64,000 nucleotides of DNA from a virus. Under the pieces are notes generated by a model. That model was not told where the DNA came from. It saw only the letters and a program-made list of their open reading frames with translations, and made no database searches. This document shows positions 8,312 to 25,276 of the stretch, in pieces. The translations under genes and the position numbers were made by a program. How positions within the stretch are numbered: the first letter of the stretch is position 1; the number at the start of each line of letters is the position of its first letter. The stretch is taken from IMG/VR virus record IMGVR_UViG_3300046370_000202; one strand, written 5' to 3'.

Positions 8312-9016
8312 TTAAACTGCAGAAATGTCGTCAAGAACCATCTCACGAAATTCTTCAGAAGTCTCTGACCAGTCAAATACATAAGAAACGGTAACACGCC
8401 AGTCATCTGTAGATGCGGCATGATACATTAACTTTTCTGGTTCGTCATAGTGTCCGAAGTATGCAGCCTTACAAGTCCATACTCCTGGCGCGTCTTGACA
8501 ACGAACAACTTCTTTCGTTTCTGGATGAATGTAGTCAAAGTAACCAGAACCATCTTCTGAGTAAGAGAAGATAAGATTAAAACCTGGCGCATTTGCATTG
8601 TTATGCCATGAGATATACCCGCCCGGTGGATAGACTGCTGCAAGTGCATTGTGTTTAACAGACAAGAAGTTCATCATCTTGTCGTTTAGATCACGTAGGT
8701 GATGAGTCATGTCACGTTTAAAGATTGGGTCTGCATCTTTTTCAAACATCTTATGTGCGCGGTCAGATAGTTTGAAGTTATATCCAACCATCTCTTCGGG
8801 AAATCCATCATGTCCCTTGCCCATTGCAACGATGTCATTCATGTATCCTTCACCAACGTAGTATGAACGTTGACGAATATGTTCTGCTGCAGTCAAGTGA
8901 CAGTTCTTTTCAAAACCCTGCATAGTATGCAATTTGGCATACTGGTCTAAAACCTCTAGCAACTCTGGGTTATTTACCTCTACGTGCTTTAGATATTGGT
9001 CGTTTACCTGTGTCAT
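8312..9016 (-). CDS. Putative 2OG-Fe(II)/cupin-fold oxygenase (hydroxylase)
   Basis: YPPGGYISWHNN ... YHAA ... WRVTVSY: DSBH-type H-x-(N)...H...R pattern, with Asn in place of the usual Asp. Confidence 0.55.
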   Translation of the reverse strand: MTQVNDQYLKHVEVNNPELLEVLDQYAKLHTMQGFEKNCHLTAAEHIRQRSYYVGEGYMNDIVAMGKGHDGFPEEMVGYNFKLSDRAHKMFEKDADPIFKRDMTHHLRDLNDKMMNFLSVKHNALAAVYPPGGYISWHNNANAPGFNLIFSYSEDGSGYFDYIHPETKEVVRCQDAPGVWTCKAAYFGHYDEPEKLMYHAASTDDWRVTVSYVFDWSETSEEFREMVLDDISAV

Positions 9017-9741
9017 ACGATTGGAGTATCCTTGTTCAACCCAGCCGAGAAGTGTCTTAAAATTACGGGTCCCGTCTCAGGTCGTGTTCTTGCCCAATTG
9101 AGGGCATTGTAATAATTCCACCTCAAGTCATCATCAAAGATACCAACCTTGAGGTCCTTATACTTTTCTTCCTTCTCAGTTAACCACCAGAGCGAGAACT
9201 GATCCCAAGACTTGAGACTGTCTGCATACCCTTCCGGCCACCAAGAGTCGTTCATCTGTCTGAATGTCAAGTCCCACCAATCGTCCATGAATTCACGTAC
9301 AATCGGTTTACTCATATCATACAAACAAACGCCACCGCATAATGTAAACTTCGCCATACCCTCTGGTGTAGAGAAGTCGCGTTCTGCGTAGATGTAATCT
9401 CTATCATCTGTTAACGCAGAAAACACCACATCGTGGTCTTTCATCTCATCCCAAACTTTTACAATGTCTTCGTGCTCACATTCCATATCAGCATCAATGT
9501 ACATTGTCAAGTCATACGGAGACTTTGCCATCCCCCACAACTTCGCACGGTAGTGATCATCACAAAAGATGATATCATCCGCGACTTCGCGACCACGATC
9601 ATCAATAAACCGTTCTTCGGTCACTAAACAAATCTTGCAATCCTCATAGTAATCTCTAATGGATTCGGCAAGATTCAATGCGTACAAATAAAAGTTGCGT
9701 TTCTTAGACGCAACTAATAAAAATCCTTTACTCTTCTCCAC
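9013..9741 (-). CDS. GT-A fold glycosyltransferase (GT8-like)
   Basis: K.WGMAKSPYDLTMYIDAD (DxD), GGV, WDQFSL, RWNYY and late RH motifs. Confidence 0.75.
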   Translation of the reverse strand: MEKSKGFLLVASKKRNFYLYALNLAESIRDYYEDCKICLVTEERFIDDRGREVADDIIFCDDHYRAKLWGMAKSPYDLTMYIDADMECEHEDIVKVWDEMKDHDVVFSALTDDRDYIYAERDFSTPEGMAKFTLCGGVCLYDMSKPIVREFMDDWWDLTFRQMNDSWWPEGYADSLKSWDQFSLWWLTEKEEKYKDLKVGIFDDDLRWNYYNALNWARTRPETGPVILRHFSAGLNKDTPIV

Positions 9742-10189
9742 TGTCTTCGGCCTCTAGTTGTTCTTGCAGAATCATAATTGAGTACATATCTACTTCAATC
9801 TTTGACTTCGCCCGACGCAGTTTTGCCTTTAACTTGCGGTTCTTAGAGTTTTTAATCTCCTCAACCTCAAACGCTTCTAGTTTGTAGTTGAACAGTTTTT
9901 CAAGCTTACGTGCCTTTTGATGTTCTTCTTCACGTATCTTTTCTTCTTCAGCTTCTGCCTTCTTGCGAACAACACGATCAGATGTTTCCTTATCAATCGC
10001 ATCTTCACCTAGGGCATCAACAACTTCATTAAACAGTTCGTTCTCACTACCATCCTTATCATGACGATGTAAAAACATTTGTTGGCGCGTCACTCTACCA
10101 ACGTCATCTTCAAGTTCTAGAATACAGTTTATTTCTTTCTTTTCGTCTGTTTCCCAGAACGCATTATCCATCCAACGCTTATAACTCAT
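9728..10189 (-). CDS. Hypothetical charged helical protein, first gene of the GT/oxygenase operon
   Basis: 153-aa ORF with GGAG RBS; overlaps the GT start. Confidence 0.75.
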   Translation of the reverse strand: MSYKRWMDNAFWETDEKKEINCILELEDDVGRVTRQQMFLHRHDKDGSENELFNEVVDALGEDAIDKETSDRVVRKKAEAEEEKIREEEHQKARKLEKLFNYKLEAFEVEEIKNSKNRKLKAKLRRAKSKIEVDMYSIMILQEQLEAEDSGEE

Positions 10190-10295: not shown

Positions 10296-13200
10296 TTATG
10301 CAACACGTACGTATAATGTATATGTTTCAGTAACCTCTGTAAGCGTATCTGAAATCGTTGCACCCACGTAGTTACCCAAGAAAGATCTTGCATAGTTACC
10401 AACGTAATCTCGAGCATAATTACCACCAAATGTACGTGAGTAATTACCTGTGAAGTCTCCAACATAGGCAGAGTCACGATTACGTGAGTATGCACCAGAG
10501 TATGCAGAAGTACGGACACGAGCATATGCAGAGACACGGACACGAGAGTAATTACCTACGAAGTCGCGTGAGTAAGTGCCAGTATATTCACCAGTAAATG
10601 TGCGTGAATAATCACCGACATAGTTACCACCGAAGTCGCGAGTATATGTGCCAGTGTATTCACCAGCAAAGTCACGGGAGTAGTTACCTACATATTCCCC
10701 AGCGAAGCCGCGTGAGTAGTTGCCCGCATACTGACCAGAGAAGTCTCGAGTATATGTGCCAGTGTATTCACCCGCGAATCCACGAGCATAGTTACCTACG
10801 AAGTCGCCGACAAAGTCACTTGCATAAGCCCCAGTGTATTCACCAGCAAATGTTCTTGCATAGTTACCAGTAAAGTCTCCAGCAAAATCACGTGCATAAT
10901 TACCAGCAAATGTTCTTGCATAGTTACCAGTAAATGTGGCATTATATGTTCCCGCATACTCACCAACAAATCCACGTGAGTAAGCACCAGTATATTCACC
11001 AACGAAGTTGTTGTTGTAAGTACCAGTGTATGCGCCTGTGTATTCACCTACGAATGTTCGGTTATAAGTTCCTGCGTATTCGCCAACAAATCCACGTGAA
11101 TAGTTACCCGCAAAGTTTCCACCAAAGTCACGTGCGTAGTTTCCTACGTAGTTTCCTCCGAAGTCTCCAACAAAATCACCGATAAAGTTACCAGCGAAGT
11201 TACGAGAGTAGTTACCAGTGAATGTGCGTGAGTAGTTGCCTGCAAAATCTCCAGCGAAGTCACGCGAGTAGTTACCAGTGAATGTACGTGAATAGTTACC
11301 AGCAAAGTTTCCTGCAAAGTTAGTCACACGATCACGAGCATATGTTGATGCACGGTTGCGGATGTATGCAGAAACACGAGTCACGACATATGCAGAGTAA
11401 CGAGTACGAGTAGATGTACGAGTATACTCACCAGTAAAGTTACCGGCATATTCACCAGCAAATCCACGTGAGTAGTTACCTACAAAGTCACCTGCATAGT
11501 TACGGGCGTAGTTACCGATAAAGTTACCAGCGAAGTTTGTTACTCTATCACGAGTGAAGTTACCTGTGTAATCAGTAATTCGTGTACGTGCATACGAAGA
11601 GTTGCGATTACGCGTAGATGTACGTGTTGATGTACGAGTAAAGTTACCTGTGTAATCAGTAATTCGTGTACGTGCATAAGCTGAGTAACGTGTGCGTGTT
11701 GAAGTAATTGTCGATACACGTGTGAAGTTGCCTACGTAGTTTGTTACGCGATCACGAGCGTAAGCTGAGTTACGTGTACGAGTATAGTTTGTTGCACGAG
11801 TTCTTGCATAAGCACTGTAACGAGTACGAGTAGATGTGCGCGTAGATGTACGAGTAAAGTCACCAACATAGTTAGTAATACGAGTACGTGAGTAGGCACT
11901 GTAACGAGTACGTGTTGAAGTACGTGTTGACGTACGAGCATATTCACCTACGAAGTCACCAGCATAGTATCCAGTACGTGTGTAGTTACCTGTATTGGTA
12001 AAGGTCTGAACACGATTACGAGTGAACGCACGAGCGTAGTTACCTGTGTAGTACAATGTACGAGTGTAGTAACCAGTACCTGTACCCGTACGTGTTGACG
12101 TACGGCTGTAATTGCCTTCATATGAGAACGGACGACTACGAGTATAGTTTCCTACAAAATCACCAGTAAAGTTGGTTACACGATCACGTGAGTAGTTTCC
12201 AGCGTATGAGAACGCACGACTTCGATTATACGTAGAAGTACGGGTGCGCGTATAGTCGCGAGAGTAGTTTCCAGCGTAAGAGAATGCACGACTGCGAGTA
12301 TAATCCTCTGCGGATACACGAGTTCGGGCATAGTCCCCAACAAAGTTGCCGGTAAAAGAACCAGCCGTGCCTTGAGTAACCAACCCATAGTAATAATTTT
12401 GAAAAAGTTGCATTTGGAGAGTGCCTCTTGAATAGGTCACTCCATTGTGCGTAATTGAAGTTGCGTTGGCGTTAGTGCTGGTCGCAATAGTCGTAGCGTT
12501 AATAACAACAGAAGCTCCCGCAGTACTCTTTAACCAATATGTGACATATTGGGCGTACTGAGTAGTACTTCCCGAATTAACAGAAGTTCGGGTTGATGTG
12601 CGTGCGTAGTTGCCTACATACGAAGTACCGCCCGTAACTCCAGTATAGTTTCCTACAAAGTTTCCTGTAAAAGAACCGCCAGAACCACTGTAAGTAACGC
12701 CGTAACGAGTTTCCAGCCCAAAGTTCTCTCGGAAAGTGCCTCGATTATACGTGACACCACCATTGGTTATTGATGTCATGGTGGTTCCTTGCGCTATAGC
12801 GACAGAAGAACCGCCCACATAAACAATTACAGTACTGGATTCATTATCAATAACCCAACCATCTGTCACTGTGTTGAAAGGACTCTCCGAATAATCGTCA
12901 GTAGCACCACCAGAACCCGTAGAAACGCGAGTAGAAGTTCGGGTGAAATCTGTACTAGTTGGAGTTCCAGTGTAGTTACCTAAATAAGATCCCGTTCGGT
13001 TTCGAGTAAAGTTTCTTGAATAGTTTCCGCCGAAGTTACGCGAATAATTACCCAAATAAGATCCAGTACGAGTACGGCCATAGTTGCCTACAAAGTTGCC
13101 TGCGTAGTTGACATCTGGTTCGCGAGTATAGTTACCCAAATAAGATCCGGTTCGTGTACGCGCATAGTTACCTACAAAGTTGCCTGCGTAGTATAGTGTA

Positions 13201-15698
13201 CGAGTATAAGCTGGGGTACGTGCATAGTCTGCAGCATAGTTACGTGCATAGTTGCCAGTGAAGTCGCCGACATAGTACAGTGTACGTTGATAGTTCAAAG
13301 TACGTGTTGAAGTACGTGTTGATGTGCGTGAATAGTTTCCTACAAAATCACCAGCATAGTTACCAGCAAAACCACGAGAATAGTTGCCTACAAAGTCGCC
13401 AGTAAATGTAGTCGCGTAATTACCTACGAAATCACCACCGTAGTTGCCTGCGAATCCTCGAGCATAGTTGCCTACAAAGTCGCCTACATAGTCTCCGACA
13501 TAATTTCGGGCGTAGTTACCAACAAAGTTACCTGCGAATGTCGTTGTATAGTTGCCTGTGTAGTTACCTGCAAAGTCACCAGCGTATCCACGAGCATAGT
13601 TTCCTACGAAATCTCCGGTGAATACTGTGGTATAATTACCTACGAAATCGCCACCGTAGTTGCCCACAAATGTACGTGCATAGTTTCCTACGAAATCTCC
13701 GGTGAATACTGTAGTGTAGTTACCCACGAAGTTACCAGCGTAATTAGTAACACGGTCACGTGTGTATGCAGATGCACGAGTACGGGTAGATGTACGCGCA
13801 TAAGCTGAGTAACGTGTTCTCGCAGAAGTACGAGTAGAAACACGAGCATAGTTGCCTACGTAGTTTCCTGCAAATCCGCGTGAGTAGTTACCTACGAAGT
13901 TACGTGAATAGTTGCCTTGGAAAGAACGTGAGTAGTTTCCAATAAAGTTGCCAGCAAAATCGGTCACACGATCGCGAACATATGAAGAAACACGGCCACG
14001 AGTAAACTCACCCGTGAAGTTAGTCACACGATTGCGTGTGTAAGTAGAAACACGGGCACGAGCATAAGCATTTGCAAAGTTAGTGACACGGTCGCGAGTG
14101 TAGTTAGTGATGCGGGTTCGTGTGTAATCTGCAGAGTATGCTGATGTGCGTGTACGAGTTGAAGTTCTTGTATAAGCTGAGTTACGAGTACGTGAGTATG
14201 TTCCGGCATAAGCTGATACACGGTTTCGTGAATATGTACCAGAGTATGTACCTGTGTATGAAGAAACACGAGTACGAGCGTAAGTGCCTGAATAGGCAGA
14301 GTTACGAGTACGTGCATATGTACCTGCATAAGCAGAAACACGACCACGAGTGTATGCAGAAGAACGAGAACGCGTGAACGTACCAGTAAAGTTCTGTACG
14401 CGATTACGTGTGTAAGTAGAAACACGTGCGCGTGAGTAAGTTCCCGCAAAGTAACCAGTAAATGCAGTTAGTCTATTACGAGAATATGTAGAGATACGGT
14501 TACGAGCATACGCGCCAGAGTACGCAGATGTGCGTGTGCGCGAATATGTTCCAACGTATGTTGAGACACGGGTTCTCGCATAAGTGTCTGAATACGCGGA
14601 TGTACGAGTTCGTGAGTAGGTTCCTGTATAAGAGGAAACACGTGTACGAGTGTAATCAGCCGAGTAAGTAGAAACACGATTGCGAATATAAGTCCCTTCA
14701 TATGAAGATGGTCGCGTACGAGTGTACTCTCCGACGAAATCTCGAGAATAGTTACCTACGAAATCTCTATTATATGTTCCTGTGTAGTCTCCAACAAAGG
14801 TGCGGGAGAATGTATCTACACTATTACGTGTGTATGTTGAAACTCTATCGCGAGTGTAAGCCGAAATACGCGTACGTGCGTATGATGAGTTACGTGTGCG
14901 AGAGTATGAACTATTTACAATAGTACGTCGGGTGTTAGTTGCATCACCAACAACAGACCATGTTCCAGGCAGTGTTGGTACACCTTGCGCAGCTGAACGG
15001 AACTGATAAGATCCGATCGCACCGGCCGTCGCACGGAGGGATTTGACACGTTGACCAATAGTATATTTGATCTGATCATCCGACATTTCTTTGAATCCGT
15101 CAAAGTTGGATGACCCATCGTAACAAATAGCAACGGGACGCACTGCGTTAACCACAGGCATCGTTACACGTTGATAGATGTTGTAATTTGTTACTGTACC
15201 ATCACCGTGTGTGTCTGAGAAGACATTTGCGAGGAAGACCGTATAGTCTGCGCCAGGTGATGTACTAGAAAGTTTGAATGTACCGACATAGTCATTCTGG
15301 ACCATGTTACTGAGTACACGACTTGCAAGATTATCCAAATCTGGATCTACCATTTCGTAGAAGCCTGGATTTGGGCCTGAGTCATAATAACCCACAGGAC
15401 GAACAAAATCGGCACCAGTTTCATCTGCAACACCGCCCACCTGACGTAGAGGTGTGGTTACAGTTGTAGATGTGATATTAGTAATTGGGTGAGTACCCGC
15501 AGATTCATTAAAATACGCGTCCGTAAATGAACCAATATTAACATCACCAGTTAAACTGATATCTCCGACTTCACCAGCAGATGCATCTGCTAATGCTTGT
15601 CCCACCGCATAAGAAAGATAGTTCTCTTCTAGCGGTGTAAATTCCTGTAGGTCACCATTAGTATTTTTAATTTTTAGTGGGATACTAGATGCTGACAC
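10296..15698 (-). CDS. 1800-aa tetrapeptide-repeat protein; predicted giant antiparallel beta-hairpin filament with two tip domains
   Basis: GTG start, own late promoter and terminator; 264-aa N-domain then ~1515 aa mostly of Y/F/R/S-initiated tetrapeptides with mirror-complementary arms. Confidence 0.9.
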   Translation of the reverse strand: MSASSIPLKIKNTNGDLQEFTPLEENYLSYAVGQALADASAGEVGDISLTGDVNIGSFTDAYFNESAGTHPITNITSTTVTTPLRQVGGVADETGADFVRPVGYYDSGPNPGFYEMVDPDLDNLASRVLSNMVQNDYVGTFKLSSTSPGADYTVFLANVFSDTHGDGTVTNYNIYQRVTMPVVNAVRPVAICYDGSSNFDGFKEMSDDQIKYTIGQRVKSLRATAGAIGSYQFRSAAQGVPTLPGTWSVVGDATNTRRTIVNSSYSRTRNSSYARTRISAYTRDRVSTYTRNSVDTFSRTFVGDYTGTYNRDFVGNYSRDFVGEYTRTRPSSYEGTYIRNRVSTYSADYTRTRVSSYTGTYSRTRTSAYSDTYARTRVSTYVGTYSRTRTSAYSGAYARNRISTYSRNRLTAFTGYFAGTYSRARVSTYTRNRVQNFTGTFTRSRSSAYTRGRVSAYAGTYARTRNSAYSGTYARTRVSSYTGTYSGTYSRNRVSAYAGTYSRTRNSAYTRTSTRTRTSAYSADYTRTRITNYTRDRVTNFANAYARARVSTYTRNRVTNFTGEFTRGRVSSYVRDRVTDFAGNFIGNYSRSFQGNYSRNFVGNYSRGFAGNYVGNYARVSTRTSARTRYSAYARTSTRTRASAYTRDRVTNYAGNFVGNYTTVFTGDFVGNYARTFVGNYGGDFVGNYTTVFTGDFVGNYARGYAGDFAGNYTGNYTTTFAGNFVGNYARNYVGDYVGDFVGNYARGFAGNYGGDFVGNYATTFTGDFVGNYSRGFAGNYAGDFVGNYSRTSTRTSTRTLNYQRTLYYVGDFTGNYARNYAADYARTPAYTRTLYYAGNFVGNYARTRTGSYLGNYTREPDVNYAGNFVGNYGRTRTGSYLGNYSRNFGGNYSRNFTRNRTGSYLGNYTGTPTSTDFTRTSTRVSTGSGGATDDYSESPFNTVTDGWVIDNESSTVIVYVGGSSVAIAQGTTMTSITNGGVTYNRGTFRENFGLETRYGVTYSGSGGSFTGNFVGNYTGVTGGTSYVGNYARTSTRTSVNSGSTTQYAQYVTYWLKSTAGASVVINATTIATSTNANATSITHNGVTYSRGTLQMQLFQNYYYGLVTQGTAGSFTGNFVGDYARTRVSAEDYTRSRAFSYAGNYSRDYTRTRTSTYNRSRAFSYAGNYSRDRVTNFTGDFVGNYTRSRPFSYEGNYSRTSTRTGTGTGYYTRTLYYTGNYARAFTRNRVQTFTNTGNYTRTGYYAGDFVGEYARTSTRTSTRTRYSAYSRTRITNYVGDFTRTSTRTSTRTRYSAYARTRATNYTRTRNSAYARDRVTNYVGNFTRVSTITSTRTRYSAYARTRITDYTGNFTRTSTRTSTRNRNSSYARTRITDYTGNFTRDRVTNFAGNFIGNYARNYAGDFVGNYSRGFAGEYAGNFTGEYTRTSTRTRYSAYVVTRVSAYIRNRASTYARDRVTNFAGNFAGNYSRTFTGNYSRDFAGDFAGNYSRTFTGNYSRNFAGNFIGDFVGDFGGNYVGNYARDFGGNFAGNYSRGFVGEYAGTYNRTFVGEYTGAYTGTYNNNFVGEYTGAYSRGFVGEYAGTYNATFTGNYARTFAGNYARDFAGDFTGNYARTFAGEYTGAYASDFVGDFVGNYARGFAGEYTGTYTRDFSGQYAGNYSRGFAGEYVGNYSRDFAGEYTGTYTRDFGGNYVGDYSRTFTGEYTGTYSRDFVGNYSRVRVSAYARVRTSAYSGAYSRNRDSAYVGDFTGNYSRTFGGNYARDYVGNYARSFLGNYVGATISDTLTEVTETYTLYVRVA
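10371..11942 (-). repeat. C-terminal arm: 131 in-register tetrapeptide units (524 aa), mirror of the N arm
   Basis: Blocks R34-F9-R9-F64-R7-F8; 1572 nt, same length as the N arm. Confidence 0.9.
13335..14906 (-). repeat. N-terminal arm: 131 in-register tetrapeptide units (524 aa)
   Basis: Blocks R8-F7-R64-F9-R9-F34 counted by hand; endpoints checked against DNA coordinates. Confidence 0.9.
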
Positions 15699-19696: not shown

Positions 19697-22600
19697 TTAG
19701 TGATGCGCAACGTCAGTTCCATCTTCGGAATCTGACCCTGTACTGTCACCACTGCCTCCTGCACCCGAAGTGCCAGAACTTTGTGCTGGGGTTAACTCTC
19801 TAGAGATGCGGTGATAGAATATTGAGATGCCGGGATTACTCTGGTCTAATTCTTCTAGATCACCCTTGAAGTAAGTGTACCCATCATTAGCGTCAATAGA
19901 TACAATTTGTGTATCATCAAGACCTTGTGTTTGAGAAAGGTCATATGTTATACTAGATCCATTCCAATAAATGCTAGCTATATTAAATTCGTCACCGCCG
20001 CTTATTATTTGAGAGATAGAGAAATAATACTGAGGTGCTGTTCTAGAATAGAAATCGAGTTCCGGTTCAGGTTCTGGTTCGGGCTCTGGTTCTGGTTCAG
20101 GACCTGGCTCAGGTTCGGGCTCTGGTTCTGGTTCAGGACCTGGCTCAGGTTCCGGTTCTGGTTCGGGTTCTGGTTCAGGTTGTGGTTCGGGTTCTGGACT
20201 TGGAGCAGGAGTATCTACTGGGTTCAAGTCTAGGTCAAACAACTCTCCAAACTTCTGCAGTCCGCTAGCAGTGATCAAAGAGATTGCACGAAGGTCTGTA
20301 ATCATCGGAGACTTAGATGAATTGTCAGACTTCATTACAATCATGACTTGGAACACAGTAAATGGTTCTGCGTCTAGTGTGTACTCATAGTCACGGAAAA
20401 TGTCCGGATTCTCATCTGTAGGCATTGGTGTGTCAATTTCAATTTTCGCCCACAACGCATCAGCAAATGCGTTCTCATCTAGAGATGTACGTGCGTACAC
20501 TTCAAACTCTGCACCACGTGCTCGGTTCGCTGCGAAGATAATTTTGAGACCTTCTGACAACTCATCAATGATCACAGGTGTTGTAATGTGTTGAGTTGCG
20601 TTTCCATTATCGATGACATTTTCTAGAGTAACTACAGAAACTCTTTGTAGATCAATCACAGGGGAAACTTTAGGGTCGCCCGTTGACATATCTAATTTGA
20701 ATTTTAATGTTTTTACGGGAGAGTTGTCTGAGGTAGCGACAACATTCGGATTCGTATTTACATTTAGGTCATTGAGCGACACGCTTTGTATTTTACTTAC
20801 AGGAGGATCCTGTGTATATGAGTGTTGTTGAAATGTACGACTAGACCCATACGAATCCGCCAGAGCTTTAGTTACGGTAGGTTGAATACTTGTAGACCTA
20901 GGTGAGAAAGACTGCACTTGTGGAATATATTGATCATAAACCACCTGTTGAGTTGCCGTGACGTTATTACCACCACCTTGCGCAGAACTTGTTGCTGCAG
21001 CCGGTGCGGTAATGGTATACCCTTCCCACGTCGGAGATTCTACAACAAATGATCCTGTAAGTTTGTCGGGAGTAAGTCCGCCCACATTACTTGATACGTC
21101 TGATAAGACGACAACATCACCACTACTAAATCCATGCCCTTGGTGTTGCACTTTAACTTTATTTGATCCTGCTTCAATAGTTTCAAACGGACTCTGAATC
21201 AAAGTCACTTTAGGTAACTCTGCATTCTCTAAGTGTAGTACACCAGAAGGAGCAAATTCTGCGCGATCCAGTTTAAACATCAAATCCTTAGTTTGATCTG
21301 GAGTCCACGTTGATCCGTTCTGCGACAAGAACAGAGAACCTAGTGTTGGTTGACGTGATACTCTGGCTTCACGAGAAGGTCCTACAACAAACTCATAAGT
21401 CTGTGCGGTATATACATTATAATCTACAGACTCAGCAAGTAGTACTATAGCATATTCTTCGCCAGGAGTCAAGTAAATTGGTTCATCAAATACAACTTCT
21501 GTTCCTCTTTCAGACAGGTAATCTATACCCTGTTCTTGTGCGTCTGCTAAAGGTGTCACCATGATATCTTCTGAATTGACAAACTTTACTGCGCCTGGTA
21601 CAATACGATTTGTAGGTACGCCATTCTCTACTGCTCGGATTTGAACTTGCATAGGAATGACAGAGTCTTTACTCTCAACATAAACATGTGCTTTGGTGAT
21701 AAAGATGCCGTTTGGATTTTCTACTTGATCAACAAAGAATGTCTGCGCAAGTGGATCTCGCCAATAAGTTGTTTCAACAATACGCGTTGTACGCATAGTA
21801 CGTTGTATTGTCTCGATAGTACCCACCGAAGTGTATCCTGCGCGACTGACCGCAGTAGAATCTTCTTCATTGTTTTTGCTGATGTCAAGTAGTTTAAATT
21901 CTTGCCGACCAGTTCTAAAGCTAATATCTGGAGTGTTGGGTAAGAAGAAAGAACCTATCAGTTCTCCTTTATCGTCAGTTACTAGGTCGCCTTTGCCGCC
22001 TAATTCGGTAGGATATTCGGTTGCATTAGAATATTGATTGCCGTATTCGGTTGGGTCGTCAGAGAAGTTGACATAAGTAGACTCTGGTCTTACCCAATCA
22101 TTCACATCTTTGTTGCCAAAGAAAGCCCACATAGGACTATTAGGCCTCAATCCCTGTACCCTAAATGATATTTTGCGAGAACGCATGAAAGGAATAATCT
22201 CCACATCCAGAATGCGTTCTCCTATAAATTCTTGAATTGTTTTTGACGTTACTTTAGATCTAATTTTATTATTAGGTCTTGAGAAGAAAGTAGGCAAATA
22301 AGTCGTAATACGACGTACAACATTCTGCATTATATCGGGCAGTCTTTTAGTCTCTACCCATTCGTCAGATGACGGAGACAATGTCATATGTCCGTTAGAA
22401 GTGATAACCGCAAAAGGGTTAATGTTGTCTGTACCAGTCGCTAATAGTTGAGATATTATTGTAACGTTTGTATGAGGTAGAGTAACAAGGTCTCCTTTCT
22501 TAGAGGCGGTATTTTGTATGTTGGTTGCATCATACATTAAACGTACAGAATTTTCCACGAATGATGGACGCAATAAACCATCCGGATCTACCGATGCTCT

Positions 22601-25276
22601 ATAAGCAGGATTATGCACGTCAGAAAAGTTCAGTGTGCTAAAGTTATCCGCAATGAATCCCGCTTTGGTACGAGGGTTGCCGTTCGCATCTAATACTTGT
22701 AAGACGTTGGTATTAGTCTCAAGGAAACTCAATGCAGTCAACTCGTACAATGTCTCTACGCGATCAGACAACTTAGAGATGTCTTTCATTGTGAACCGGC
22801 GATTAGGTATGTATGTGCTGATCACATCCGAACGGTCGAATGTGTATGCGTTCAACGTGAACTTGTATAACGCTAATGATCCTGCGGGCGTCTCTGGTTC
22901 GCGTGGATCAATAGATGGTTGACCCTGAATAACTTGTAATTCCCCAAAACCTATATCTCCACGACTGTCTGTAGAGTTCACTACAAGAATATCCGTACGC
23001 GGTAAGTAGTAATCAACTTGATTAATTATAATCGATGAGGCGTTCTGTGGCAACTCGATGATATCAAAAGAGTCTTGTGGCTGAACAACATCTCTATCTG
23101 GTCTGAAATCTAGTACATCGCGTAAAGAGATTGTCTCTCCAGTGCTAATTGTGGTGTGTGAAGGGATATCTTCATATGCTAGTCCAGTGTATGAACTCGC
23201 AGCAAAGAATTTGCCACCATCTATACGTTCGAAGTACTCAAAGGAAATTTCTATTGATACGTTAGGTCCGTGTGGGATAGTGTATCCTTCTTTTACGAAA
23301 GCTTTTGCGATATCATAATAGTTGTCTCGTTGACCGCCATCTAAATCAAACTGGAATGTGATGTCTGTAGTTGTACTACCGTTAGTTAGTTGGACAGATG
23401 TTATTGAAATCGCGTCGACAACCGACAAAGAAATATGCGTTGTTTCTTGAGTCACATTTATTGTTTTCGACCCCGTAGTGACTGTTTTTGTTTTAGGGGA
23501 GATAGACTCTTGCTTAAAGTATGCGATCGCATATGTCTTATTGTCATCTAATCCGGAATACGTTGATGAATTATCAGAATTGGGTGTAGGGGCAATTTTA
23601 AGAATTGGTCCGTTTACTTCTGAAATTATCCAACTAGAAGATTCAACACCCGCAATAGTAATTACCCCGCCAGATGGCTGGTCTGTTCTAAATTTTTGTG
23701 ATGTGTAAGAAGCGCCTTGAATGCTGTTTTGTTCCGGAGATTTATATGGCAACGCGAATAACAGATCGTTATTAGATGTTCCATATAGTGTGGTATCAAA
23801 TGTAAGCGGTGTTTGGTCTGAATCTGTATCGAAAGATAAAGGTCTTAGTGGGATATCATTTCCAAATTCATCCTGTAAATATCTTACACCTGAGAATGGG
23901 TAACGAGCACTAGTTACGACAGTCTGGCCGTCGCTGTCAGTATACTCAATTTTATCCATTTTAATGTCAAAGACATACAAGCGATAACCTACACCATCTC
24001 TTTGAATTCCTCTAATGTGTGCGGTTCCTAACAATTGTGTGACTTCTTGATAAACTCCAAATAAGTTTACTTTGCCAAATGTGCCTAGTTGACCGAACCC
24101 TTCAGTACGATCTGGATCAATGTATACCCAGTTTCCATATACAGCAGGTACCGCCTCTTGTGTCTGTGTTCGCGTCTCACGGGCTTTAGGTACAGTTATG
24201 TCAGTAGTACCTACTTCTAAACGATAACCGTCTACGTACGCGACACCCTCTGTAACGTCTAAGTTTAGACTTGTGCCATCTTCTTCTAGGTCTTCAAAGA
24301 TAGCTCTAAACTCTTCGACAACATAGTCGCCAGATTCTTCTTTCGTGCGAAGTGCCAGTAGATCATTGACACGATTATATGCGTCAAATGTACTAATCTC
24401 TCGTGTAATCACGCCGTTAACGATACGAGCAACGAATACAAAGTTATCTTCTCCGGCCTCTTTACGTGTAGACGGAATTAGTTTAATCTGATAACGATCT
24501 GCGCCTGGGGCGGTTCTATCAGGAACTTCGCCTTGATTGTCGTATAACTTTGGATCTTCGTTTGATGACGGTCCACCCGCTTTGACTATATTCTGTTCTA
24601 TCTTAAATCCAAAGTCTACTGTGGGAGTGCCACTATACTTGTCAACGAATGTGCTGCCGCCACTTAGATATACAAAATGTCCTTGTACAAAAAAGTCCCC
24701 CGACGAAAAATATGCTTTAGTCGATTTACCCGAAGCTGGAATAACAAGATCTAGTCCATCATCTCCAGTGACTATCGTATCTGGACCTACGACCATGTTA
24801 ACTCCACCAGTGCCATCTGCAAAAGATAGAACATTGGTGGCGTCTACACGAGGAGAAATGGTTGTATCAGTAACACCTAATGTGCTTGTATATTGTACGT
24901 ATAGTGTAGCTGGATCGCCTGTAGGATTTGATGGATTGGGAACAACCGCATCATGCAACTCTATAATCTTAAACTCGACTTCACCATTCGTCAACACATC
25001 CCCAACGGAAGCACTTGTAATATCACTGCCGGACGTTAATCTAATATACTCCAATCCATTATCTACAGTCGCACCGCCTGGATTGACCATCGCACCTTCT
25101 TTAAAGATGTTCTGACCGAATCGTGCGATTTCTTCTTGAATGATTGTTTGTTGTTCGATTAGTTCACGAGCTTGAAGCGCACGACCGGAATTGTATAGGA
25201 CACGATAGTAACCGTCATTCGCGTCATAGAAATCGCGATATGTTTCTCTGAACGTTTTGTTTGTAAAATCTACCAT
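19697..25276 (-). CDS. VrlC-like (DUF4815-type) large virion structural protein with PE-repeat linker and appended C-terminal domain
   Basis: [67 protein letters not shown] motifs. Confidence 0.85.
20061..20210 (-). repeat. (PE)n Pro-Glu linker repeat
   Basis: [40 protein letters not shown]... Confidence 0.9.

Follow-up and report, generated by a model that had tools for sequence, protein, structure and literature searches.

By analysing a 64,000-nucleotide stretch of viral DNA (IMG/VR record IMGVR_UViG_3300046370_000202; the whole stretch is called the window hereafter), we found that an 1800-amino-acid (aa) protein encoded on its minus strand carries two arms of four-residue repeats that are complementary to each other in mirror order. 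This mirror complementarity is conserved among relatives of the protein, and the lengths of the two arms co-vary exactly. We consider it likely that the protein is one giant fold-back fibre, the stems of which would pair antiparallel in a register set by the order of their units. The pattern lies in an open reading frame (ORF) at 10296-15698, the parts of which are as follows (positions in the window, residues of the protein).

10296-15698, minus strand: whole putative fibre gene, 1800 aa, GTG start, stop codon at 10296-10298
14907-15698, minus strand: N-terminal anchor domain, residues 1-264, with a strand-helix-strand internal repeat
13335-14906, minus strand: N arm, residues 265-788, 131 tetrapeptides, blocks R8-F7-R64-F9-R9-F34
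13023-13334, minus strand: inner continuation of the N stem, residues 789-892, from the gapped mirror alignment and the class strings
12255-13022, minus strand: apex, residues 893-1148, short repeat stretches and two homologous small domains
11943-12254, minus strand: inner continuation of the C stem, residues 1149-1252, from the gapped mirror alignment
10371-11942, minus strand: C arm, residues 1253-1776, 131 tetrapeptides, blocks read backwards F8-R7-F64-R9-F9-R34
10359-10370, minus strand: extra unit Y-V-G-A, residues 1777-1780, which makes the unit numbers of the arms equal if it is counted
10299-10358, minus strand: conserved C-terminal tail, residues 1781-1800, a strand predicted to dock on residues 226-261

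The in-register tetrapeptides begin at residue 265. An original prediction on this DNA had already parsed both arms into such units, and its parsing and coordinates turned out to be exact (residues 265-788 correspond to 13335-14906 and residues 1253-1776 to 10371-11942). Positions 1 and 3 of the units hold Tyr/Phe, Arg, Gly or Ser/Thr, and positions 2 and 4 are small or polar, forming a face rich in Val/Ala/Thr/Ser and Asn/Asp/Thr. Such an alternation would be that of a beta strand with two different faces. Neither stem contains a single Cys, His, Lys, Met or Trp, and both arms contain tandem modules of 84 nucleotides (nt). Further inward, the tetrapeptide run of residues 789-892 is broken by 2-residue frame shifts near YxRT motifs. 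The two small apex domains (residues ~917-1018 and ~1030-1123; nt 12330-12950, minus strand) are 35% identical to each other (E = 5e-17) and, since they flank the mirror centre, they would lie side by side in a hairpin.

For the comparison of the arms, each unit was classed as YxRx, RxSx, Rx(T/Q)x, SxRx, [YF]xG[NDEQ] or [YF]xG-other from its positions 1, 3 and 4 only, and the N arm was set against the C arm in reverse unit order, each unit itself being kept forward. The pairing rule was YxRx with FxG[NDE], RxSx with YxRx, RxTN or STRT with FxG[ND], and YxGT with YxGT. We found that 117 of the 133 unit pairs obey this rule from the termini inward and without gaps, compared to 70 pairs at the best other mirror offset and 72 at the best forward offset. 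The match had been expected to exceed that of shuffled units, and it did so by far, with shuffling giving 50.9 ± 5.0 pairs and a maximum of 69 in 5000 (z = 13.2). The mutual information between the arms was 1.37 bits, against 0.25 in the shuffles. The blocks of equal size and opposite type that had been claimed were also recovered when a two-state hidden Markov model was applied to each arm alone (R9-F6-R64-F9-R9-F34 for the N arm and F8-R7-F64-R9-F12-R31 for the reversed C arm), within 1-3 units at the borders, where YxRx units are ambiguous. At the level of single units, the features quoted in the original prediction face each other: YxGT stands opposite YxGT at units 18, 24, 33, 49, 52, 55, 56 and 59, the doubled pair included. 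With gaps allowed, the mirror alignment reaches residues 265-892 and 1149-1776, that is 628 residues per side and close to the ~650 per strand proposed earlier, with 141 of 159 columns complementary and one gap.

A hairpin in DNA or RNA, or an antisense duplication, was considered as the cause of this pattern and rejected: we found no inverted DNA repeats, and the N arm shares 31% identity with the reverse complement of the C arm in the mirror register and up to 34% elsewhere. The mirror match is therefore a property of the protein, as nothing comparable exists at the nucleotide level.

By pooling 1403 unit pairs from 14 proteins, we obtained a pairing table. YxRx:FxG[NDE] was counted 527 times, RxSx:YxRx 317 times, RxTN:FxG[ND] 168 times and STRT:FxG[ND] 113 times. 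YxGT faced itself 79 times where 9 were expected, while YxRx:YxRx was seen twice against 142 expected and FxGN:FxGN never against 141 expected. In the register proposed originally, the contacts between positions 1 and 3 are, as claimed, aromatic-Gly and aromatic-Arg in many cases, but they also include 321 Arg-Arg pairs. Moving the register one unit outward, by counting the Y-x-G-A unit, gives equal unit numbers on both sides (134/134, 125/125, 169/169). The residue pairs then become Arg-Tyr (907), Gly-Arg (514), Gly-Tyr (313), Phe-Ser (297), Phe-Thr (191), Phe-Gly (185), Gly-Ser (142) and Phe-Arg (117), and among 5570 residue pairs there is no Arg-Arg, aromatic-aromatic or Gly-Gly pair. We regard this shifted register as the physically cleaner one, a choice that sequence alone cannot decide.

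Scans with the N-terminal domain gave 8 IMG/VR loci and 75 metagenome loci, from which we obtained 37 complete relatives (663-1911 aa), including 31 distinct ones; when the anchor was used as the query of a word-index search of proteins, one truncated relative was obtained. First, we observed that N and C stem lengths measured by gapped mirror alignment correlate with r = 0.999 over the 31 distinct proteins. Stem length spans 104-744 residues, a seven-fold range, and the difference between the N and C sides never exceeds 16. Second, relatives of 1163-1911 aa show 78-90% gapless complementarity from the termini inward. In relatives of at least 1163 aa, the first unbroken N/C runs are 82/81, 84/83, 96/95, 76/75, 93/92, 103/102, 119/118, 125/124, 134/133 and 169/168. 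The two runs are one unit apart in most relatives, ~6 apart in a few, and ~10 apart in the L019/L073 group, whose N run is cut short by an early frame break. Under the pairing rule, complementarity is just 38-61% in the shortest relatives (663-879 aa). Third, when the arms were segmented independently, the variable third block was equal on both arms in all cases, with 13, 15, 30, 41, 44, 46, 49, 64 or 90 units (90 being a composite). Together with the correlation of stem lengths, this bears out the expectation that insertions and deletions in one arm would be compensated in the other.

Some of these length changes could be located. Compared to L003/L004, the relatives L005/L006 have an 11-unit module added four times in the N arm and, at the mirrored C-arm site, a complementary 11-unit module added four times as well; the modules inserted in one arm show no sequence relationship to those in the other, but they agree in number and have complementary types. 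Likewise, L003/L005 have two additional units in an F block of the N arm and two in the facing R block of the C arm. The compensation is exact between arms lying more than 800 residues apart, and a long-range constraint between the halves of the chain exists. Apex length, for its part, ranges from 5 to 341 residues among the relatives. Four of the short proteins (L039, L050, L052 and L059; 663-879 aa) share a different, conserved and aromatic-rich apex domain; their arms are more degenerate, yet they open with the same R8/F8, F7/R7 blocks.

Among GenBank phages, similar DNA occurs only in C48C1 (Kyanoviridae, 156 kb), which encodes a syntenic homologue of 3347 aa annotated as hypothetical. In this homologue, the C arm is broken by six non-repeat stretches, which are globular domains, and the stem is kept, with 219 of 267 columns complementary when the inserts are treated as bulges. 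A gapless alignment after plain removal of the inserts lost the register, whereas the gapped version kept it. Residues ~2010-2170 of the C48C1 protein (L001) hold a tandem duplication of ~75 residues, made of the end of a globular insert and 7 units.

The anchor domain, 60-94% identical across the 31 relatives, is itself repetitive. Module copies lie at residues ~99-150 and ~186-240, with a weaker copy at 7-49, and modules 2 and 3 align with E = 1.7e-5 in hhalign. An AlphaFold2 (AF2) model of the anchor, built with 31 sequences, had low to moderate confidence, with a predicted local distance difference test score (pLDDT) of 54.6. As a Foldseek search of the PDB with this model gave no match at E <= 0.001, the anchor fold is left unnamed. 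In the same model, module 2 forms an ordinary short beta hairpin where module 3 holds the arms. The C-terminal tail is a conserved feature of the family and has a weak similarity to the closing strand of anchor module 2 (E = 0.02). One metagenomic relative (P0002; 1798 aa, ending at a contig edge) has an insertion of ~750 residues in anchor module 3, flanked by the conserved R-P-x-A-x-C-Y-D-D stretch and by the F-D-G-F-K-E-M motif and carrying precomputed matches to PF13385 and PF14312; the anchor therefore has a second site at which large insertions are tolerated.

We also modelled a complex with ESMFold2, in which chain 1 was the anchor with the first 40 units and chain 2 the last 40 units with the tail, using a five-sequence alignment per chain and three controls. 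Docking of the tail onto the anchor scored 0.64, against 0.00 for the best control; 0.64 is a mark attained by 58 of 80 solved complexes and by 2 of 110 mismatched pairs. In the ESMFold2 runs, at least 27% of the contacts agreed and the pLDDT of the partner was at least 29. All confident contacts were formed by the last 15 residues with residues 226-261 and a few others of the N-terminal domain, with an expected error of 1.7-2.4 Å. The C-terminal tail is thus predicted to dock as a strand onto the anchor. Taken together, the internal repeat, the module 2 hairpin, the likeness of the tail and its docking suggest that the repeat region of ~1500 residues is one beta hairpin of the anchor domain, enormously expanded. 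This picture favours pairing within one chain, without proving it.

Based on these observations, we propose the following arrangement. Residues 1-264 and the last ~20 residues would form the anchor, from which two tetrapeptide strands would emerge. The N stem (265-892) would run outward to an apex bearing the two small homologous domains, and the C stem (1149-1780) would come back antiparallel, so that each unit of one stem would face a unit of complementary type on the other. The irregular order of unit types would therefore allow only one register, much as a nucleic-acid stem is kept in register by the order of its bases. At one end, the anchor would be attached to the baseplate or to another fibre, the apex domains would lie at the other, far end, and the whole may serve as an adhesive or receptor-reaching fibre. 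Its length would be ~200 nm, provided that the ribbon is fully extended. The length co-variation seen across relatives lends strong support to the fold-back reading. For the detailed version of it, in which a side-chain code zips one half of the chain to the other and so makes a beta ribbon of hundreds of residues, our confidence is somewhat lower, but we think that it is probably right. The code would match Tyr with Arg or Gly, Phe with Ser/Thr/Gly, and Arg with an aromatic residue or Gly, never like with like; the ribbon would resemble a nucleic-acid stem in its sequence-set register, its length changed by paired insertions, and its one-sided bulges carrying domains.

Several points weigh against this reading. 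The pairing rule was derived from the same protein to which it was applied, and the register is ambiguous by one unit as judged from the pair counts. The relatives share ancestry and their pair counts are not independent, so that the independent evidence consists of the length changes. In a set of ten relatives with arms of the same length, a change on both sides was seen at just 1 of 81 positions, the set being too conserved to be informative on substitutions; the co-variation therefore rests on insertions and deletions rather than on substitutions. In C48C1, the duplicated 7-unit piece has no partner in the N arm, and it may be either a recent uncompensated event or an assembly artefact. Neither AF2 nor ESMFold2 gave a confident three-dimensional model of the arms. 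The AF2 single-sequence model of residues 669-1372 (704 residues) had a mean pLDDT of 41 and showed strands of ~27 residues with short breaks, possibly a local meander; at such a pLDDT it is no evidence for a local fold. ESMFold2 laid the arms side by side with a pLDDT of 29-44 and no confident contact between them, and we discounted these arm-arm contacts as support, only the tail-anchor interface being confident. The structure prediction of N and C fragments suggested in the original prediction thus supported the docking of the termini but not the contact between the arms. Its proposal of antiparallel arms with a register given by the block pattern likewise stands in part: it gains support from the length co-variation and from signs of a fold-back (tail docking and anchor repeat), but lacks a confident arm model. 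Finally, we know of no solved two-stranded ribbon of such length, and the stability of a lone ribbon in the absence of further oligomerisation is doubtful.

This last concern bears on a variant that we hold tentatively, in which three chains, each a fold-back hairpin, would assemble with threefold symmetry as a six-stranded antiparallel needle, like that of gp37 but gigantic, with the face of positions 2 and 4 as its core. A lone two-stranded ribbon of 630 residues per strand would seem too unstable, and the Val/Ala/Thr/Ser and Asn/Asp/Thr face could be accommodated in a narrow core. A trimeric state is usual among phage fibres, and the needle of gp37 is a six-stranded antiparallel beta structure (PMC9659904, PMC6957217). 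However, the anchor has a three-fold internal repeat within one chain, as would rather be expected of a monomer that imitates or caps a trimer, no His and no HxH metal sites occur in the stems, and Pfam and PHROG searches revealed no sequence similarity to gp37. In any case, such a needle refines the giant hairpin instead of excluding it.

Mirror complementarity and compensated lengths would be satisfied equally well if the arms paired between two antiparallel chains, the N arm of each with the C arm of the other, in a rod of double length with anchors at both ends, just as a palindromic nucleic acid may pair into a duplex rather than a hairpin; the docking of the tail, computed with two separate chains, does not distinguish such a swap from a hairpin. 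Yet a virion fibre would need one attached and one free end, and this rod would have its anchors outside and its apex in the middle. As the anchor repeat moreover points to arms that stand in place of an ordinary beta hairpin of module 3, formed within one chain, we judge pairing between chains unlikely. It is more improbable still that the arms never touch, each forming a local solenoid or meander, and that the mirror arose from a mutational process or from a common symmetric partner. The local strands of ~27 residues, the only ones in the best-predicted part of the AF2 single-sequence model, and the 84-nt tandem modules of both arms would fit such a scenario, but a pLDDT of 41 is not evidence. 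We can name no mutational process that reverses unit order, keeps the units forward and switches their type, and there is no complementarity at the DNA level. The complementary types and equal numbers of inserted modules that share no sequence relationship, and nine length classes matched exactly, also speak against arms that do not touch. We therefore keep the single-chain giant hairpin as our preferred reading.

Regarding its genomic setting, the gene sits in the baseplate/tail-fibre module of a tailed phage. Its upstream neighbours, all in the same orientation, are T4-type baseplate wedge genes and genes for a tail-tip fibre protein and for a protein with a tail-assembly-chaperone domain (PF16778); downstream are three small genes followed by a tail-fibre-assembly homologue. 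PHROG matches of the neighbours include L-shaped tail fibre assembly and tail fibre, and baseplate wedge subunits are also found among them. The 1800-aa protein itself matched no Pfam family at E <= 1 and had a single weak match in PHROG, to an unannotated family, while a feature search of the ESM Atlas returned just unnamed viral clusters, all below 0.9. With such neighbours, the protein is probably a fibre carried by the virions of an uncultured marine phage of the T4-like kind.

The three small genes directly downstream (8312-10189, minus strand) overlap and encode proteins of 153, 242 and 234 aa; they had no match in Pfam or PHROG, and are kept in phage C48C1 with 80.7% nt identity. At 19697-25276 (minus strand), between the baseplate wedge genes and the fibre block, lies the gene of an 1859-aa protein that matches PHROG 358, a large unannotated family (E = 7e-292). 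Within the repeat region, a 141-aa ORF in another frame (14024-14449, minus strand) most likely results from the scarcity of stop codons in the repeats.

No account of a mirror-coded fold-back fibre turned up in literature searches, and the design appears new. If the arms do pair, a long-range protein fold would be readable from sequence by a simple complementarity rule, as hitherto only in nucleic acids and, more loosely, in coiled coils. Fibre construction would gain a new principle, and design would gain from nature both rules for making beta ribbons of specific register and chosen length and a template for programmable beta-sheet nanofibres. The protein would moreover be a case in which compensatory insertions, not substitutions, reveal protein contacts. 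It would also represent a new class of very long, thin phage appendage with variable apex and side domains, widespread in abundant marine T4-like myoviruses and probably relevant to host finding. Given that structure predictors fail on the arms, the protein is in addition a useful hard target.

The nearest structural precedent, by analogy, is the T4 gp37 needle (Bartual et al. 2010, cited in PMC9659904 and PMC6957217), which is a trimer of six-stranded antiparallel beta structure with ~50 residues per strand and seven iron ions on His-x-His motifs. Both proteins come from T4-like myoviruses. In gp37, the chain runs out to the distal tip and back, with axial, extended antiparallel beta strands and the receptor-binding part at the turn; judging from its mirror complementarity, length co-variation and tail docking, the chain described here would also run out and back. 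In contrast, the strands would be more than ten times longer here and follow a strict tetrapeptide with a pairing code. HxH, the gp37-type iron site, occurs nowhere in the 1800-aa protein, and the absence of any Pfam family and the weak, unannotated PHROG match leave no detectable sequence relationship. The S16 gp38 adhesin (PMC6851490), a monomeric fibre tip, is a polyglycine-II sandwich of ten short segments with tight turns and variable tips. It likewise sends long loops out along the fibre axis and back, as a lattice of antiparallel extended segments, but with more than 50% Gly and a three-residue period, whereas Gly amounts to 11-13% here, the period is four and there would be two very long segments. 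In beta-solenoid or triple beta-helix shafts, repeats contact their neighbours only, in contrast to the long-range length compensation found here.

Antiparallel arms are also known from SMC, MukB and Rad50, where they are coiled coils of alpha-helical heptad repeats. The likeness would lie in termini that join in one domain, long antiparallel arms with lengths kept matched in evolution, and an apex domain. Instead of heptads, however, there is here a two-residue alternation in a four-residue unit, predicted with low confidence to be strand; the likeness is one of architecture only, function and family being unrelated. Lastly, an analogy may be drawn with the hairpin stem of nucleic acids. The letters here are tetrapeptides and side-chain pairs, the code is degenerate, and co-variation is found far more in insertions and deletions than in substitutions. 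Like such a stem, however, the arms combine reverse-read complementarity, an irregular sequence that would fix the register, compensatory change and, in C48C1, a tolerance for one-sided bulges.

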